A DNA stretch of 38,924 nucleotides. Origin: Chloroflexota bacterium (GTDB lineage: Bacteria; Chloroflexota; Limnocylindria; P2-11E). A model generated the notes under the pieces. The model searched no databases and had not been told where the DNA came from. It saw only the letters and a program-made list of their open reading frames with translations. How positions within the stretch are numbered: the stretch's first letter is position 1; each line of letters starts with the position of its first letter. This document shows, one piece after another, positions 738 through 23,248 of this stretch. Position numbers and translations under genes: made by a program. The stretch lies in NCBI GenBank assembly GCA_016875795.1, contig VGOU01000003.1, forward strand, positions 1 through 38,924, in the 5' to 3' direction.

Positions 738-1139
738 TCAGTTCTGCCGCGAGCTCGAGGCGGTGATCGCGGAGATCGCGACCGGCAGGCTGCCGACGGT
801 CATGCCGTCGACGTCGAGGTCGAATCGGTGCAGGCCGTACGACGTGAAGCCGAGGTTGTTCAGCTCGACGATGACGTTCACGTCCTGGCCCGGGACGGAG
901 CGCACCTGGATGTGCGGGTCCTCGGCCATGGCCGCGCCGCCGTCCGGCTTCGTCAGCCGCACGGTGACGTCGTGCGCGCCGGGGTCGAGCGCGAGCACCG
1001 CGACGAGGTACATCCGCGGGTGCTGGGCGGGAAGCTGGCTCACGCTGATGTTCCGGAAGATGCCGAGCATGCTCAGCTTCCCGTCCTGGCCGACGATGGC
1101 GTGATCGCAGAGGGCCGCGATCTTGATCTCCGGCGTCAC
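738..1139 (-). CDS. Hypothetical protein, DUF6941-like
   Basis: GTG overlaps the leuS stop (GTGA). The ALCDHAIVGQDGKLSMLGIF N-terminal pattern and GxHRF C-terminal pattern resemble this family. Confidence 0.7.
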   Translation of the reverse strand: MTPEIKIAALCDHAIVGQDGKLSMLGIFRNISVSQLPAQHPRMYLVAVLALDPGAHDVTVRLTKPDGGAAMAEDPHIQVRSVPGQDVNVIVELNNLGFTSYGLHRFDLDVDGMTVGSLPVAISAITASSSRQN

Positions 1140-3571
1140 TTCGCGAGCACGATGTTCACGAGCCGGTCCTTCACGACCACGATCTTCGCCGCCGCGCGCC
1201 CGCCCATCGCCGCCTGCACCTTCTCGCTCGCGAGCGCGGCGGCCGTCGCATCCTGCTCGCCCAGGCCGGCCGCGACCGTCAGACGGTCGCGCACCCTGCC
1301 GTCGACCTGCACGACGAGCGTCACCTCGCCGGAGCTCGCCAGCGCGGGGTCGTACGCCGGCCACCGCTGCTGGTGGATCGAGTACGCCCCGCCGCGCCGG
1401 GCCCACAGCTCCTCGGCGATGAACGGCGCGAACGGCGCGAGCAGCAGCAGCAGCGTGTGGATGCCCTGGTCGCGGGTCGGGCCGCTCGCGCCCTCGAGGG
1501 CGTTGCGCAGCTTCATGAGCGCGGCGACCGCGGTGTTGAAGCGGTACGCCTCGAGGTCCTCGCCGACCTTGCGGATCGTGCGGTGGATCTCGCGCTCCAG
1601 GTCCGGGTCCGGCTCCCCCGCTGTGGGCTTCCCGTTCGCCAGGCGCCAGACGCCGTGCAGGAAGCGCGACGTGCCGTCGATGCCCGCGGCGTCCCAGTCG
1701 GAGCCCTGCGTCCACGGGCCCAGGAACATCACGAACATCCGCAGCGCGTCGGCCCCGTACCGCGCGACGTAGTCGTCGGGCGACTGCACGTTGCCGCGGG
1801 ATTTCGACATCTTCCTGCCGCCGAAGACGATCATCCCCTGGTTCTGCAGGCGCAGCGCGGGCTCGTCGAACCACAGCTCACCCAGGTCGCGCAGCGCCTT
1901 GCAGAAGAAGCGCGTGTACATGAGGTGCAGGATCGCGTGCTCGATGCCGCCCGTGTACTGGTCGACGGGCAGCCACTTCCGGCCCCGATCCTTGTCCATG
2001 AACGCCGTCCCGAGCTTCGGGTCGAGGTAGCGGTACATGTACCAGGACGAGTCGAAGAACGTGTCCATCGTGTCGGTCTCCCGGCGCGCCGCGCCGCCGC
2101 ACGAGGGGCACGCCGTCCGAGTGAACGACTCCACCTTCTCGAGCGGGTTCCCGCCGCGGCCGGTGAACTCGGTGTCGCGCGGCAGGATGACCGGCAGGTC
2201 GGCCGCGGGCACCGGGACGACGCCGCACTTCCCGCAGTACACGACCGGGATGGGTGTGCCCCAGTAGCGCTGCCGCGAGATGAGCCAGTCGCGCAGGCGG
2301 TACGAGACCGTCGGTCCGCCGATGCCGCGCCGCTCGGCCTCAGCGGCGATGGCCTTCTTGCCCGCCTCGCTCGGCATGCCGCTGTGCGGGCCGCTGTTCA
2401 CCATGACGCCCTCGCCGGCATACGCGGCATCCGGCTCATGCGCCTTCCCGTCCGGCGAGACCACCTCGCGGATGGCCAGCCCGTACCTCTTCGCGAACGC
2501 GAAGTCGCGCTCGTCGTGCGCGGGGACGGCCATGATCGCGCCCGTGCCGTAGGTGACGAGGACGTAGTCGGCGATCCACACCGGGATGCGCTCGCCGGAG
2601 AACACGTTCGTCGCGTACGCGCCCGTGAACACGCCGGTCTTGTCCATCCCCTCGGCGGTGCGCTCGATCTCGGCGACCGCGCGCGCCTTCTCGACGTACG
2701 CGTCGACCTCCCCCTTGCGGTCGGGCGTCGTGATCCGCGCGACGAGCGGGTGCTCCGGCGCCAGGACCATGAACGTGGCGCCGTAGATCGTGTCGGGCCG
2801 CGTCGTGAAGAAGCGGATCTCGGCGGCGGCGTGGCCCTCCACCGGGAACGCCAGCTCCGCGCCCTCCGAGCGGCCGATCCAGTTCGTCTGCATGACGCGC
2901 ACGCGCTCCGGCCAGTCGATGCCGTCGAAGCGCAGCAGCTCGTCGGCGTACTTCGTGATCCGCAGGAACCACTGCTCGAGGTCGCGCTTCACCACGGGCG
3001 TCTCGCACCGCTCGCACTTGCCCGCGATGACCTGCTCGTTCGCGAGCACCGTCAGGTCCTTCGGGCACCAGTTCACCGGCGCCTTCGCGCGGTACGCCAG
3101 CCCGTGCTCGAGGAACTTCAGGAAGATCCACTGGTTCCACTGGTAGAACTCGGGGTAGCAGGTGACGACCTCGCGGCGCCAGTCGATCGCCGCGCCCATC
3201 GCGCGGAACTGCTGGCGCATGTGGGCCATGTTCTCCTCGGTCCAGCGCGCCGGGTGCATCTTGTTCCTGATCGCGGCGTTCTCGGCGGGCAGGCCGAACG
3301 CGTCGAAGCCCATGGGGAACAGCACGTTCGCCCCGCGCATGCGCATGTAGCGCGCGGCCGCGTCGGCGGGCGCGGACGCGTACCAGTGGCCCACGTGCAC
3401 CTGCCCCGACGGGTACGGGAACATCGTCAGGAAGTAGGAGTTCTCGCGGCCCGGGACCTCGTCCGGCGTCTCGTGCAGGCGCGTGCGGTCCCAGGTATCG
3501 GCCCACCTGGCCTCCACCTCGGCCGGCACGTACTTCGCGATCCTCTCCTTCGCCGGCTCCTTTACCGCCAT
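1136..3571 (-). CDS. leuS: Leucine--tRNA ligase
   Basis: MFPYPSG-HVGH (HIGH), FTTRPDT CP1 editing domain, DWLISRQRYWG, KMSKS. GAAGGAGG RBS precedes ATG at 3571. Confidence 0.98.
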   Translation of the reverse strand: MAVKEPAKERIAKYVPAEVEARWADTWDRTRLHETPDEVPGRENSYFLTMFPYPSGQVHVGHWYASAPADAAARYMRMRGANVLFPMGFDAFGLPAENAAIRNKMHPARWTEENMAHMRQQFRAMGAAIDWRREVVTCYPEFYQWNQWIFLKFLEHGLAYRAKAPVNWCPKDLTVLANEQVIAGKCERCETPVVKRDLEQWFLRITKYADELLRFDGIDWPERVRVMQTNWIGRSEGAELAFPVEGHAAAEIRFFTTRPDTIYGATFMVLAPEHPLVARITTPDRKGEVDAYVEKARAVAEIERTAEGMDKTGVFTGAYATNVFSGERIPVWIADYVLVTYGTGAIMAVPAHDERDFAFAKRYGLAIREVVSPDGKAHEPDAAYAGEGVMVNSGPHSGMPSEAGKKAIAAEAERRGIGGPTVSYRLRDWLISRQRYWGTPIPVVYCGKCGVVPVPAADLPVILPRDTEFTGRGGNPLEKVESFTRTACPSCGGAARRETDTMDTFFDSSWYMYRYLDPKLGTAFMDKDRGRKWLPVDQYTGGIEHAILHLMYTRFFCKALRDLGELWFDEPALRLQNQGMIVFGGRKMSKSRGNVQSPDDYVARYGADALRMFVMFLGPWTQGSDWDAAGIDGTSRFLHGVWRLANGKPTAGEPDPDLEREIHRTIRKVGEDLEAYRFNTAVAALMKLRNALEGASGPTRDQGIHTLLLLLAPFAPFIAEELWARRGGAYSIHQQRWPAYDPALASSGEVTLVVQVDGRVRDRLTVAAGLGEQDATAAALASEKVQAAMGGRAAAKIVVVKDRLVNIVLAK

Positions 3572-3603
3572 CGGCCGACCTCCTTCGCGTGCTCGCGCGC
3601 AAC

Positions 3604-3640
3604 AAAAAGACCCCTCGTCCTCCTGACAGGGGACGAAGGG
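3604..3640 (-). terminator. Intrinsic terminator of the leuS T-box leader
   Basis: CCCUUCGUCC...GGACGAGGGG hairpin followed by UCUUUUU. Its 5' arm overlaps the 3' side of the antiterminator. Confidence 0.88.
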
Positions 3641-3758
3641 CGAAGCCTCCGCGGTACCACCCCGGTCGAGAGCCACATCGTATGAGGCTGACGCCTCATA
3701 CGGCCGTCGCCCGGCTCACCCGGAAGCCGCGGCTTCCGGTCTCGCCTTCGCTCGGCCG

Positions 3759-3830
3759 TGGACCTGGCGGGATTCGAACCCGCGACCCCCACACTGCCAG
3801 TGTGATGCGCTCCCACTGCGCCACAGGCCC
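3759..3830 (-). tRNA. tRNA-Ala (GGC)
   Basis: Cloverleaf: acceptor GGGCCUG/CAGGUCC with the G3:U70 Ala identity pair, D-arm GCGC/GCGC, anticodon loop CUGGCAG, T-arm GCGGG-UUCGAAU-CCCGC, discriminator A. CCA is not encoded. Confidence 0.97.
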
Positions 3831-4013
3831 AAGACGCTCTCCGACTCGAGCACGGTGATAACGGACGTGACCCCGGCGACCGCTCACTCTCGCTTCGCGA
3901 CCGCGGCTCCCGAGCGAGTTCCGCCTTCCGTACGCACCAAGTCGCACCGACCGCTGGCTCTCTGAGCGCCGGGACCTGGCGTACTGCTCTCGTTCGCAGC
4001 CTTTGTGCTCACG

Positions 4014-4019
4014 AGTATA
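4014..4019 (-). promoter_or_regulatory. Putative sigma-A -10 element (TATACT) for the T-box/tRNA/leuS transcript
   Basis: TATACT lies about 12 nt upstream of the base of T-box Stem I. Confidence 0.65.
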
Positions 4020-4253
4020 GGTTTCGACCCTCGCTCGCTCGCGTCCCAGCGCGCGCCGGCGACCCGCAGGCAGCCCGCTCACCGTCGTCGCGGGAAGACC
4101 AACGGCGGGTCGGGCCTGCGGGTGGCATCCGCACGATGGCCCCGGCGACGGCCGTGCAGCGGTACGGCGCTCGAGGTGCGGACCGCGATCGGAGCGACCC
4201 GCGCCGGGGGTCCCGGCTCCCCAGGCGGGTGCGTCACCCGCCCGAGGGCTGAC

Positions 4254-5420: not shown

Positions 5421-7294
5421 TTGTTCACGCCCCTGTATTCCTCGAGGACCTTCTGCGTCAGCGCCACGGCAGGGTTGAAGCAGTTCGCGCAGAGCGAGCG
5501 GCTCGAGTCGAACATGAGGATCACCATCGCGATCTCCGCCGTCGGGTCGGTGTCGTCCTCCTTGGGGACGTAGCTCACGAACCAGTTGTGGAACCCGAGC
5601 ACGTTGCGGCCGGCCGCGTCGAGGCCCTTCGACTCGCCGAACTCCGCGGTGCCGGTCTTCCCGGCGATGGGAAGCTTCGCGTCGGGCATGTACGCCTGCC
5701 CGATGGTGACGACGCGCCGCGCTGACTCGCGGATGAGGCGGAGGTGCTCCTCCTTCACGTCGAGCTTCCGCGCGACCGCCGGCGGCTCGGTGTGCACGAC
5801 CTTGCCGTCGGGCGAGCGCACTTCCTTGAGGAGCCGCGGCTTGTAGACGGTGCCGCCGTTCGCGACCGCGGCGTACGAGTTGAGGAGCTGCAGCGGCGTC
5901 ACCGCGACGAAGCCCTGGCCGATGGCCGCGTGGTACGTGTTGCCGAGCGTCCACGGCTCGTCGAAGGTCGCGAGCTTCCAATCCGGGTCGGGCATGATCC
6001 CGCCCGACTCGCCCGGAAGGTCGATCCCGGTCGGCGCGCCGAACCCGAGCATGCGGCCGTACTTCGCTATGGCCTCGGGGCCCGCCCCGCGCTGGCCCGT
6101 GTACGGGTTGCCGCCGCCGATCGTGTAGAAATATATGTCACTGGAGTGCGCGAAGCCGTTGACGAAGTCGACGGTGCCGTGCGTGGTCCAGTCGTAGAAG
6201 CGCCACCCGTCCACCACCATCACGCTCGACGACACGTTCACGACGGTGTTGCGCGTCGCCGCGCCGGTGCTGAGCGCCGTGAGCCCCGTGACCATCTTGA
6301 ACGTCGACCCCGGCGGGTAGATGTCGGCGATCGCCTTGTTCACGAGCGGCCGCCGCCAGTCGCCGTTCCACGCCTTCATCTCCGCGCTCGAGACGCCGCG
6401 CACGAACGAGTTGTTGTCGTACGCCGGGATCGAGACCATCGCCAGGACCTCGCCGTTCTGCGGGTTCATCGCGATCCCCACGGCCTGCGTGAACCTGTCC
6501 TCGCGCACGCCCTGCTCGAGCTCCCGCGCGAGGATCCGCTGCAGGCGGTCGTCGATGGTGAGGACGAGGTCGTTCCCCGGCTTCGGCGGCGTCAGCCCGA
6601 GCGTGCGCAGCTCCCGCAGCGACGCGTCGCGCTCCACCTCGCGCCGGCCGAGCGCGCCGCGCAGGTACCGCTCGTACTGGTATTCGAGGCCCGTCTTGCC
6701 GATCGTGTCGCGCAGCAGGTAGCCCAGGTCCTTGCGCGTCGCGAGCTCGGCCTCGTTGATCGGCCCGACGTAGCCGAGCAGCGGCGAGTACAGCGGTCCG
6801 TCCGGGTACACGCGCATCGCCTCGGCCGTCACCGTCGCGCCCCGATACAGCTCCGCGCGCTCGATGAGCAGCATCGCGACCTCGCGCGCGACGGGCTTCA
6901 CGCTCACCTTCACCGGCTCGTACGGATTGCGGATGCGCTGGTCCGCGATCGCCTTCGCGATCTCGTCGCTCCCCCGCTCCACGAGCGGCGCGAGGCGCGA
7001 CGCGAGCTCGTCCTGCCGCGCGCGTGCCACGTCGGCGGGCAGGACCGTGACGGCGAAGCCCGGGTCGTTGCGGGCGAGGAGCTGCCCGCCGCGATCGAGG
7101 ATCACGCCGCGCGTGGGCAGGACCGGCACGCGCACGATGCGGTTCTGCTCCGAAAGCGAGCGGTAATGGGCGCCGTTCACGACCTGCAGGTCCCACAGCC
7201 GCACGCTGAGCACGACGAAGATGCCGACGATCACCAGCGCGAAGCCGGCGAGCCGGTGCGGACGGACGAAGGGACGCTCGCTGCGGTCGATCAC
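5417..7294 (-). CDS. mrdA: Penicillin-binding protein 2
   Basis: RGVILDR, GKTGLE, YPPGSTFK (SxxK), SSD (SxD), AGKTGTAE. Lies between mreD and rodA. Confidence 0.95.
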   Translation of the reverse strand: MIDRSERPFVRPHRLAGFALVIVGIFVVLSVRLWDLQVVNGAHYRSLSEQNRIVRVPVLPTRGVILDRGGQLLARNDPGFAVTVLPADVARARQDELASRLAPLVERGSDEIAKAIADQRIRNPYEPVKVSVKPVAREVAMLLIERAELYRGATVTAEAMRVYPDGPLYSPLLGYVGPINEAELATRKDLGYLLRDTIGKTGLEYQYERYLRGALGRREVERDASLRELRTLGLTPPKPGNDLVLTIDDRLQRILARELEQGVREDRFTQAVGIAMNPQNGEVLAMVSIPAYDNNSFVRGVSSAEMKAWNGDWRRPLVNKAIADIYPPGSTFKMVTGLTALSTGAATRNTVVNVSSSVMVVDGWRFYDWTTHGTVDFVNGFAHSSDIYFYTIGGGNPYTGQRGAGPEAIAKYGRMLGFGAPTGIDLPGESGGIMPDPDWKLATFDEPWTLGNTYHAAIGQGFVAVTPLQLLNSYAAVANGGTVYKPRLLKEVRSPDGKVVHTEPPAVARKLDVKEEHLRLIRESARRVVTIGQAYMPDAKLPIAGKTGTAEFGESKGLDAAGRNVLGFHNWFVSYVPKEDDTDPTAEIAMVILMFDSSRSLCANCFNPAVALTQKVLEEYRGVNK

Positions 7295-8040: not shown

Positions 8041-8819
8041 ATGACGCCCACGATCGCGGTCACCAACCAGAAGGGCGGCACCGCGAAGACCACCACGGCG
8101 GTGAGCCTCGGATCGGCCCTGGCAGGGCGCGGAGCCCGCGTCCTCCTCGTCGACGCCGACCCTCAGGCGAACGCGACGAGCGCGCTCGGGTTCGCCAAGG
8201 ACCGATCCACCGACCTGCACGCCGTCCTGCTCCAGGACGTCCCGGCCGAGCGGGCGATCGTCCCCACCGCGGTGGAGCGACTCGCCCTCCTCCCTTCGTC
8301 GCTCGACATGGCAGCCGCAGAGGTGGAGCTCGTCCCCGTCCTAGCTCGAGAATTCAGATTGCGCGTATCTTTATCACGGCTATCCGGCTATGACGCCATC
8401 CTCATCGACTGCCCGCCGTCGCTCGGCCTGCTCACCATCAACGCCCTCGCCGCGGCGACGCACGCCGTCGTCCCGGTGCAGTGCGAATACCTCGCGCTCG
8501 AAGGGCTCGCGCAGCTGGTGAACACGATCGAGGCCGTCCGCGCGCGCCTCAACCCGCAGCTCGCGATCCTCGCGATCCTCCTCACGATGGAGGACAGGCG
8601 GAATCGCCTCTCGCTGCAGGTGGCGGACGAGGTGACGCGGCACTTCCCGGACCTCGTCGCGCGCACGCGCATCCCGCGCTCGGTCCGACTCGCGGAGGCG
8701 CCGAGCCACGGCAAGCCTATCGACGTGTACGACCCGACGTCGCGCGCGACCAGGGCGTACGCCGAGTTCGCCGCCGAGGTGCAGGCACGCCTCGTGACAG
8801 CGGCGGCGGCGGTGGCCTC

Positions 8820-22898: not shown

Positions 22899-22902
22899 CC
22901 TG

Positions 22903-23248
22903 TGGAGATGGGGGAGGGTCGAACTCCCCGTCCAGAGCCATCGAACGATCCGCGTCCACGAAGCCTCGTCGGCGCTCTGCATCTCGCGGTCCCGGTCGCG
23001 CACCGACGCGCTACCGGATCCGCCAGCCCGGTGGTCTTAGGCCCGCTCACCGGACGTCGGCGGGCCGCACCTCCGCTCTCTCGTCCTCACCGGTCCGCGG
23101 AGGGGGGACCGGCGGGACGCTCACTGACTAGGCAGCGAGGGCGTAAGAGTTGTTGGCAGTTGTCTGCCTGCTGCTCGGTTCACGGGGTGAACAGCACCCC
23201 CGGCTCGCAACGGATCGCTCTCCTGCCCTGTCGAAACCACGCATCCCC
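22903..23248 (-). ncRNA. ssrA: tmRNA; tag peptide (A)ANNSYALAA
   Basis: 5' GGGGAUG...UUCGAC pairs with 3' CAUCUCC-A (G3:U pair). T-arm GGGAG-UUCGACC-CUCCC. Tag ORF 23128-23157 follows ACAACU. TACAAT -10 at 23273-23278. Confidence 0.97.

Follow-up and report, generated by a model that had tools for sequence, protein, structure and literature searches.

The leader of leuS in the window, the whole 38,924-nt stretch of DNA analysed here, was confirmed by sequence analysis as a complete Leu (CUC) transcriptional T-box, Stem III of which is predicted to close around an intact tRNA-Ala(GGC) gene. Comparative analysis of related loci established its anatomy, conservation and covariation, the occurrence of a Leu specifier with leuS, the promoter-like position and the presence of this tRNA as a sole copy. 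The arrangement is best explained, with good confidence, as a conserved form of the Leu T-box that has a genuine tRNA-Ala(GGC) gene for its Stem III loop and whose single transcript would serve first as the switch and then be processed. A preliminary description of this DNA had proposed that the leader is at once a Leu T-box and a pre-tRNA-Ala with the tRNA in the Stem III loop, and conservation, covariation, promoter position and sole-copy status all support that proposal.

Anatomy of the leuS leader

Each of the elements that had been listed for the leader, from TATACT to leuS, was found in its place on the minus strand by sequence inspection, ARAGORN, Rfam and TIGR00396, as follows.

4014..4019, minus strand: putative -10 hexamer TATACT, from the sequence; start site expected near 4007
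3906..4000, minus strand: T-box Stem I with AGUA (3985-3982), AGAGA (3963-3959), GGUGCGA (3948-3942) and the specifier loop; Rfam RF00230 alignment (62 bits) and motif positions in the sequence
3916..3918, minus strand: specifier codon CUC (Leu), within GAA-CUC; Rfam alignment and motif position
3876..3904, minus strand: Stem II, arms 3904-3897 and 3883-3876; Rfam alignment
3851..3875, minus strand: Stem IIA/B pseudoknot with the CCGUUA box (3864-3859); Rfam for IIA and CCGUUA, CACG/CGUG complementarity from the sequence
3836..3847, minus strand: purine string GAGUCG (RRRxG variant, 3847-3842) and Stem III 5' strand GAGAGC (3841-3836); motif and covariation
3759..3830, minus strand: tRNA-Ala(GGC), full cloverleaf with G3:U70 and A73, no encoded CCA; ARAGORN, Rfam tRNA (65.6 bits)
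3674..3758, minus strand: hairpin insert of 85 nt in the tRNA trailer; sequence and fold
3666..3673, minus strand: Stem III 3' strand GCUCUC (3673-3668) and flanking GA (3667-3666); motif and covariation, AA replacing GA in most relatives
3629..3663, minus strand: antiterminator with the UGGUACC bulge (3659-3653); Rfam (19.1 bits), fold and helix A1 covariation
3604..3641, minus strand: intrinsic terminator overlapping the antiterminator, hairpin ~3641-3610, U-run 3608-3604; fold of -27.0 kcal/mol for 3652-3598
1136..3571, minus strand: leuS, leucine-tRNA ligase, 811 aa; TIGR00396 (952.7 bits), SD AAGGAGG at 3585-3579

The hallmarks of a transcriptional T-box were present in the Rfam alignment and at the expected positions, namely the AG bulge of Stem I, the GGUG loop, the S-turn and a specifier codon, and the specifier matched the function of the downstream gene, CUC standing with leuS. 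The same genome has a gene for the cognate tRNA-Leu(GAG), on contig C34; this tRNA ends in A73, the discriminator base matched by the bulge U of UGGUACC. The RRRxG-Stem III-AA discriminator motif was recognised by covariation, the window having the variant GAGUCG ... GA, and was absent from energy folds. From the folds and from covariation of helix A1, the UGGN-bulge antiterminator and the intrinsic terminator are mutually exclusive. Only the arms of Stem III had to be redrawn, since comparison with relatives upheld the GAGAGC/GCUCUC pairing and assigned the GUC/GAC extension of the preliminary description to the flanking purine string and the 3' GA.

The Rfam T-box model, the use of which on this leader had been recommended, matched it as two pieces flanking the tRNA, at 3844-4006 (62 bits, E 6e-13) and 3629-3666 (19.1 bits, E 0.067), and no single match in the window reached the RF00230 gathering score of 93. 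The ordinary T-boxes of the same genome likewise fell below this score (best 57.8 bits). Standard searches miss this class because the tRNA splits the Rfam match. Within the leader a strict promoter/terminator scanner made no call, and a -35 element had no visible match.

Assembly and distribution of the nested layout

The concern that the nesting might be a misassembly was addressed with a contig of 713 nt that aligns to 3366-4078 without a single difference or gap; its run carries no flag as a source of this DNA, although it may belong to the same sampling campaign. Misassembly was ruled out, because this second contig spans the leader identically and over 150 further loci show the same layout.

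A LeuS search covered 40 relatives, and loci were obtained from 23 that share the family of the window genome, 1 that shares its order and 5 that belong to a different family. In this survey of related leuS leaders, which had been suggested earlier, all 24 family and order loci, including one from a genome marked unpublished (G012), have a tRNA-Ala(GGC) placed after the CCGUUA box region and ahead of leuS; the T-box bulge is kept in 23 of them. One family member, L021 (G011:C30), has retained Stem I to IIA/B and the tRNA with a decayed T-box bulge, the appearance being that of a switch caught in loss.

Wider scans used a layout pattern made up of the T-arm and 3' end of any tRNA followed within 34 nt by a T-box bulge; Stem I, the specifier, Stem III pairing and leuS are independent of the selection, because none of them is in the pattern. 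At least 120 matches were found among species genomes, those listed including 107 called Ala(GGC) by ARAGORN and 3 Ala(GGC) cut by the locus edge. The remaining 10, non-Ala matches lacked T-box parts by eye and were set aside as apparent chance. Metagenomes likewise gave at least 120 matches, 109 of those listed being Ala(GGC); T-box parts were absent by eye from the matches with 4 other tRNAs and the 4 unassigned non-Ala matches. Thus, among the matches listed in either scan, with trailers of up to 34 nt, no tRNA other than Ala(GGC) was found in a T-box. By this pattern the layout occurs in classes of Chloroflexota, in anaerobic Bacillota and in records labelled Armatimonadota. The titles among the genome matches listed included Limnocylindria, Ktedonobacteria, Thermomicrobiales, Anaerolineae and Chloroflexia, and further Syntrophomonadaceae, Peptococcaceae, Thermacetogeniaceae, Armatimonadota and Coprothermobacterota. 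Cultured carriers are Desulfofundulus thermosubterraneus, Desulfotruncus alcoholivorax, Thermosyntropha lipolytica, Desulfitispora alkaliphila and Tengunoibacter tsumagoiensis.

In two phylum samples the pattern was present in at least 37 of 401 Chloroflexota genomes and at least 58 of 401 genomes of the Desulfotruncus phylum, both lower bounds because the window itself, with its long trailer, escapes the pattern. The reversed control pattern occurred in 0/401 genomes of each sample, which ruled out chance juxtaposition. For the Desulfotruncus phylum, ARAGORN called Ala(GGC) in 23 of the 25 loci listed and in all 10 regions examined. Phage carriage of the nested leader found no support, 0 viral contigs matching the pattern; on the related question of a mobile element, the neighbours of the leader are rodA upstream and leuS downstream. 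A covariance model (R1) was dominated by the tRNA, nested and free tRNAs being inseparable below ~95 bits, and was excluded from the counts. Several tallies include genomes marked unpublished (G012, G432, G452, G461, G484, G075), and the conclusions are independent of them.

A LeuS tree of 92 nested loci, a quick, midpoint-rooted tree of nested taxa only with unreliable bin titles, separated most Bacillota from most Chloroflexota rows by a supported branch, with exceptions, and required 10 changes for 8 groups. It fits a long, mainly vertical descent or an old transfer, and no date or donor is claimed. The LeuS of the window genome grouped with records titled Candidatus Limnocylindria and Chloroflexi, in keeping with a Limnocylindria-type member of Chloroflexota.

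Some loci depart from the common plan. Several loci titled Ktedonobacteria or Anaerolineae (L042, L060, L072, L093, L096, L097, L104, L108, L116 and others) have a second tRNA-Ala, with anticodon CGC, just before the T-box, at a distance of 250-390 nt from the nested tRNA-Ala(GGC). L246 (G882:C5 61000-68500) has two identical nested leaders 4 kb apart, the first ending just after the bulge, which is either a duplication or an assembly artefact. On the Bacillota side, L243 (G850:C57) has a nested T-box with a much shortened Stem I.

Stem III covaries across the tRNA

Closure of Stem III around the tRNA was analysed in 148 loci, obtained from 180 by way of 166 with Ala(GGC), 158 unique and 157 with a bulge; of the 9 loci dropped last, 3 were short upstream and 6 had no purine string by the rule used. 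At least 4 bp could form between the bases after RRRxG and those before AA in 116 of the 148 loci, cross-locus shuffles reaching a maximum of 27%, while 32 loci had fewer than 4 bp by the same rule (bulges, mismatches or wrong anchors). Compensated variants included GACC/GGUC, GAGA/UCUC, GACA/UGUC, GGUA/UACC, GAUA/UAUC and GGCA/UGCC. With anchors blind to pairing, base pairs 1-5 of Stem III formed in 118, 120, 119, 116 and 110 of 134 loci. Among held-out metagenome loci, 78 of 95 unique loci with upstream sequence could be anchored, and the first four positions all paired in 56 of these 78 (shuffle mean 9.5, maximum 20).

A MAFFT alignment of 39 compact loci, picked for distinct Stem III strands, had 83.8% of Stem III cells paired, a value as high in 0 of 500 shuffles and above the best slid control (54.1%). 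The covariation score and the count of double changes were also reached by 0 of 500 shuffles, and the two other of five measures, which count pairs or types, did not rise above the shuffles (132/500 and 50/500) in these 39 loci. Independent contrasts on the LeuS tree (77 rows) favoured pairing at bp 3 (6.3 to 0.0, p 0.03) and bp 5 (6.2 to 0.0, p 0.03); among the results listed, the tree-aware sign tests all pointed toward pairing, but only two reached p 0.03 and the others were underpowered. The covariation in the Stem III base that had been named earlier as a check on the nesting was therefore present, above shuffles, in the 148-locus, 39-locus and held-out sets.

A partition-function fold of the whole leader gave Stem III a probability of 0.0 and the cloverleaf acceptor 0.5-0.6, and the RNAalifold prediction contained no Stem III. 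The helix appeared only in a local fold or under constraint, 3.2 kcal/mol above the free minimum. A helix of 5-6 bp that closes a multiloop is weak. Stabilisation of Stem III within the tRNA-bound discriminator is described in PMC7583486.

The nested tRNA-Ala(GGC)

The tRNA-Ala(GGC) in the leader is the only Ala(GGC) gene among the 43 tRNA calls of the genome, which is 88% complete, and the question raised earlier of a second copy was answered accordingly. In 539 ORFs, a crude set, 4.8% of the codons are GCC. G3:U70 was present in all 148 nested tRNA-Ala genes, with compensatory changes in all four tRNA stems. CCA is encoded in 0 of the 41 scored tRNA genes of the genome, so a tRNA-Ala without CCA is normal here. 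The genome encodes RNase P RNA, RNase J, RNase Y, RNase PH and an enzyme of PolyA_pol/CCA type; RNase Z fell below its cut-off (67 bits) in this 88% complete genome. Elsewhere in the window, at 22900-23248 on the minus strand, ARAGORN and Rfam identified a tmRNA gene with the tag ANNSYALAA.

A long trailer was found in just 7 of 148 loci, typical relatives having ~16 nt, and the 85-nt insert of the window therefore appears dispensable. It had no convincing further copy in the genome. The insert (3674-3758, minus strand) resembles a palindromic element in the trailers of several family members, which in L012 (~961, minus strand) lies upstream of the promoter instead and has another example in L013 (~1291); it is possibly a small REP-like mobile repeat.

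RNA runs contained just 6-8% of the words; among metatranscriptome contigs, two from relatives span the tRNA and both flanks, although contigs cannot show transcription. One of them, of 418 nt, joins the tRNA to the T-box bulge across a 17-nt spacer and says nothing on transcription either.

Proposed mechanism and possible coupling of its two functions

We infer that a single promoter upstream of Stem I would give one transcript, that antitermination works, and that switching comes first and cutting later. During transcription, Stems I and II would read the anticodon of tRNA-Leu(GAG), and the 5-6 bp base of Stem III would close around the tRNA-Ala cloverleaf, bringing the purine string beside the antiterminator, so that the discriminator would be built as in any T-box with tRNA-Ala as a looped-out passenger. 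Uncharged tRNA-Leu would then allow read-through into leuS, and charged tRNA-Leu termination. Afterwards RNase P at the 5' end, 3' trimming and CCA addition, the nucleases being those we expect to be involved, would free tRNA-Ala from either product. The terminated leader, normally waste, would become the cell's source of tRNA-Ala(GGC); this recycling would follow if the tRNA has no other promoter. Since the tRNA lies upstream of the terminator, it would be transcribed in both switch states, and any effect of leucine on its supply would thus have to act via processing and not via transcription. In the read-through mRNA, excision would create a processed 5' end ahead of the terminator hairpin; processing that leaves a terminator hairpin near the new 5' end is described for B. 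subtilis thrS in PMC7913692. A frozen accident would be sufficient to account for the pairing of Ala with Leu.

A more elaborate reading, which we regard as possible though rather doubtful, is that processing and switching gate each other. The closed Stem III would hide the leader and trailer of the pre-tRNA, delaying RNase P until the decision or until trailer trimming, and bound uncharged tRNA-Leu would prolong the delay; Leu starvation would then slow the maturation of tRNA-Ala(GGC), or excision would reset the switch and set the stability of leuS mRNA. Consistent with such gating, 0-5 unpaired nucleotides separate Stem III from G1 of the tRNA in 55 of 116 loci (median 6), the nesting is kept across phyla with the same tRNA among the matches listed, RNase P is inhibited when a leader pairs with the 3' end in the other setting described in PMC9433436, and RNase cuts inside T-box leaders alter mRNA stability in the cases given in PMC7913692. 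However, the spacers range from 0 to 45 nt on the 5' side and from 0 to 87 nt on the 3' side, a spread that speaks against any tuned geometry; family f3, a sister family (see below), retains tRNA-leuS without the T-box; and an essential, single-copy tRNA would also explain the persistence of the layout. In its boldest form, held here with similar reserve, the leader would be an ancient two-function RNA, possibly predating the split of Chloroflexota and Bacillota, in which Stem III makes RNase P wait for the switch, uncharged tRNA-Leu times tRNA-Ala(GGC) maturation, and excision sets the 5' end and the stability of leuS mRNA. If true, one tRNA would regulate the maturation of another.

Promoter position and a sister family devoid of the T-box

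The single-transcript mechanism was set against the possibility that the tRNA has a promoter of its own inside Stem II or IIA/B, or that an early RNase P cut leaves two halves of the switch working in trans, held together by Stem III and bound tRNA-Leu. A -10-like hexamer was found 12-50 nt before the AGUA motif of Stem I in 88 of 131 homologous loci, and one lay 7-45 nt before the tRNA in 6 of the 131, which would suit a second transcript in those few; the other 125 had no such hexamer before the tRNA, and the median distance from the purine string to G1 of the tRNA is 11 nt. An internal start would moreover give a transcript without Stem I that always terminates, which argues against two transcripts. 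As for a cut switch, covariation proves pairing and not covalent continuity, but T-box decisions occur in a short co-transcriptional window, as described in PMC13001445. Two transcripts or a split switch are thus improbable.

Family f3, of the same class (L187-L216), had a specifier or a bulge in 0 of 30 loci. By eye, a -10-like hexamer stands shortly before the tRNA in most of them, and leuS is still downstream in 22 of 30. With the T-box absent, tRNA-leuS kept and the promoter abutting the tRNA, the tRNA-leuS unit therefore outlives the T-box. Loss of the T-box in f3 is probably the simpler interpretation, given that three sister families, and taxa outside the class, have the nesting; this comparison is not a rooted test. 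Most f3 loci have a GC-rich hairpin resembling a terminator in the stretch from tRNA-Ala(GGC) to leuS, which raises the question of how leuS is reached by read-through.

Selection on the switch

Insertion of the tRNA might instead have broken the switch, leaving its motifs as relics and leuS to be read by leak. Decay does occur, in the lost bulge of L021, in f3, and in the shortened Stem I of L243. In contrast, the elements of the switch were conserved or covarying across deep lineages, Stem III as detailed above. A motif of the GAA-CUC type was found in 144 of 148 loci (one miss being a wrong anchor) and in 85 of 95 held-out loci; the bulge read UGGUACC in 140 of the 148, UGGAACC in 5 and UGGCACC in 3; positions 3-5 of antiterminator helix A1 paired in 119, 116 and 81 of 137 loci, above all 500 shuffles; and a U-tract followed the antiterminator region in 117 of 147. 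A vestigial T-box is therefore very unlikely.

Among 157 loci, leuS was the first gene in 97 and lay within 4 kb downstream in 47; it was not seen in 13, mostly short loci. In the 9 cases tested, the genes ahead of leuS encoded a GNAT protein, a class IV aminotransferase, presumably IlvE-like, an AMP-binding enzyme, or a metallophosphoesterase or hydrolase. Loci of family f4 (e.g. L040, L183) have a conserved GNAT gene first in the Leu T-box operon, before leuS.

The idea that the embedded tRNA acts as a structural mimic or cis ligand, pairing its own ACCA end with the UGGU bulge, is hardly credible, for although ACCA is encoded 4-94 nt upstream of the bulge in 108 of 148 loci and Ala and Leu tRNAs share A73, no CCA is encoded in the other 40, the window included, an ACCA that runs into the trailer has no free 3' end such as the discriminator requires in the account of PMC7583486, and the gene is the sole Ala(GGC) of the window genome.

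Comparison with known systems

A full-text literature search, with the classic T-box surveys outside its scope, found no description of a tRNA inside a T-box; an earlier mention of such loci in those surveys or in TBDB is unlikely but would be no great surprise. The nested leader is a real and widespread T-box variant, apparently undescribed so far. As a natural T-box with a whole tRNA in Stem III, it must be cut by the tRNA-processing machinery, and therefore sets up a race, open to direct testing, of co-transcriptional switching against RNase P. It would also give terminated riboswitch leaders a use, as feedstock for a housekeeping tRNA, and provides a natural test of the carrying capacity of Stem III.

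With the Stem II-class Leu T-box of Rfam RF00230, the leader shares the Stem I specifier, Stem II, IIA/B, RRRxG-Stem III-AA, the UGGN bulge, the terminator and the matching synthetase gene. It differs in Stem III, the loops of which are 4-10 nt in the examples given in PMC11404447 and PMC7913692, whereas here the loop holds a whole tRNA gene and its spacers. Three other T-boxes of the window genome (G000), their genes assigned by eye, have no tRNA: C76 ~6729-6917 (valS-like), C48 ~8710-8769 (ileS-like) and C51 ~6015-6333 (trpE-like), the last with a long, hairpin-rich linker.

The met leader of Staphylococcus aureus, with its 150-nt insertion and RNase III cleavage, and B. subtilis thrS resemble the nested leader in having a big insertion between the sensing halves or leader cuts that change the fate of the mRNA, as set out in PMC7913692. 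The S. aureus insertion, as located there, separates IIA/B from Stem III and does not constitute a gene; in the nested leader Stem III itself holds the insert, which is a tRNA of the essential type, and cleavage would therefore be obligatory and would yield a product. GOLLD RNA, as portrayed in PMC12990946, likewise has a tRNA nested in a larger structured RNA. It is, however, not a cis-regulatory leader, while the RNA that hosts the nested tRNA-Ala is a tRNA-sensing switch for a housekeeping gene. In mixed tRNA-mRNA operons, a tRNA shares a transcript with the protein gene downstream of it and is excised by RNase P. Family f3 has exactly that layout of tRNA and leuS; in the nested leader, unlike in mixed operons, the tRNA is enclosed by a covarying regulatory helix.
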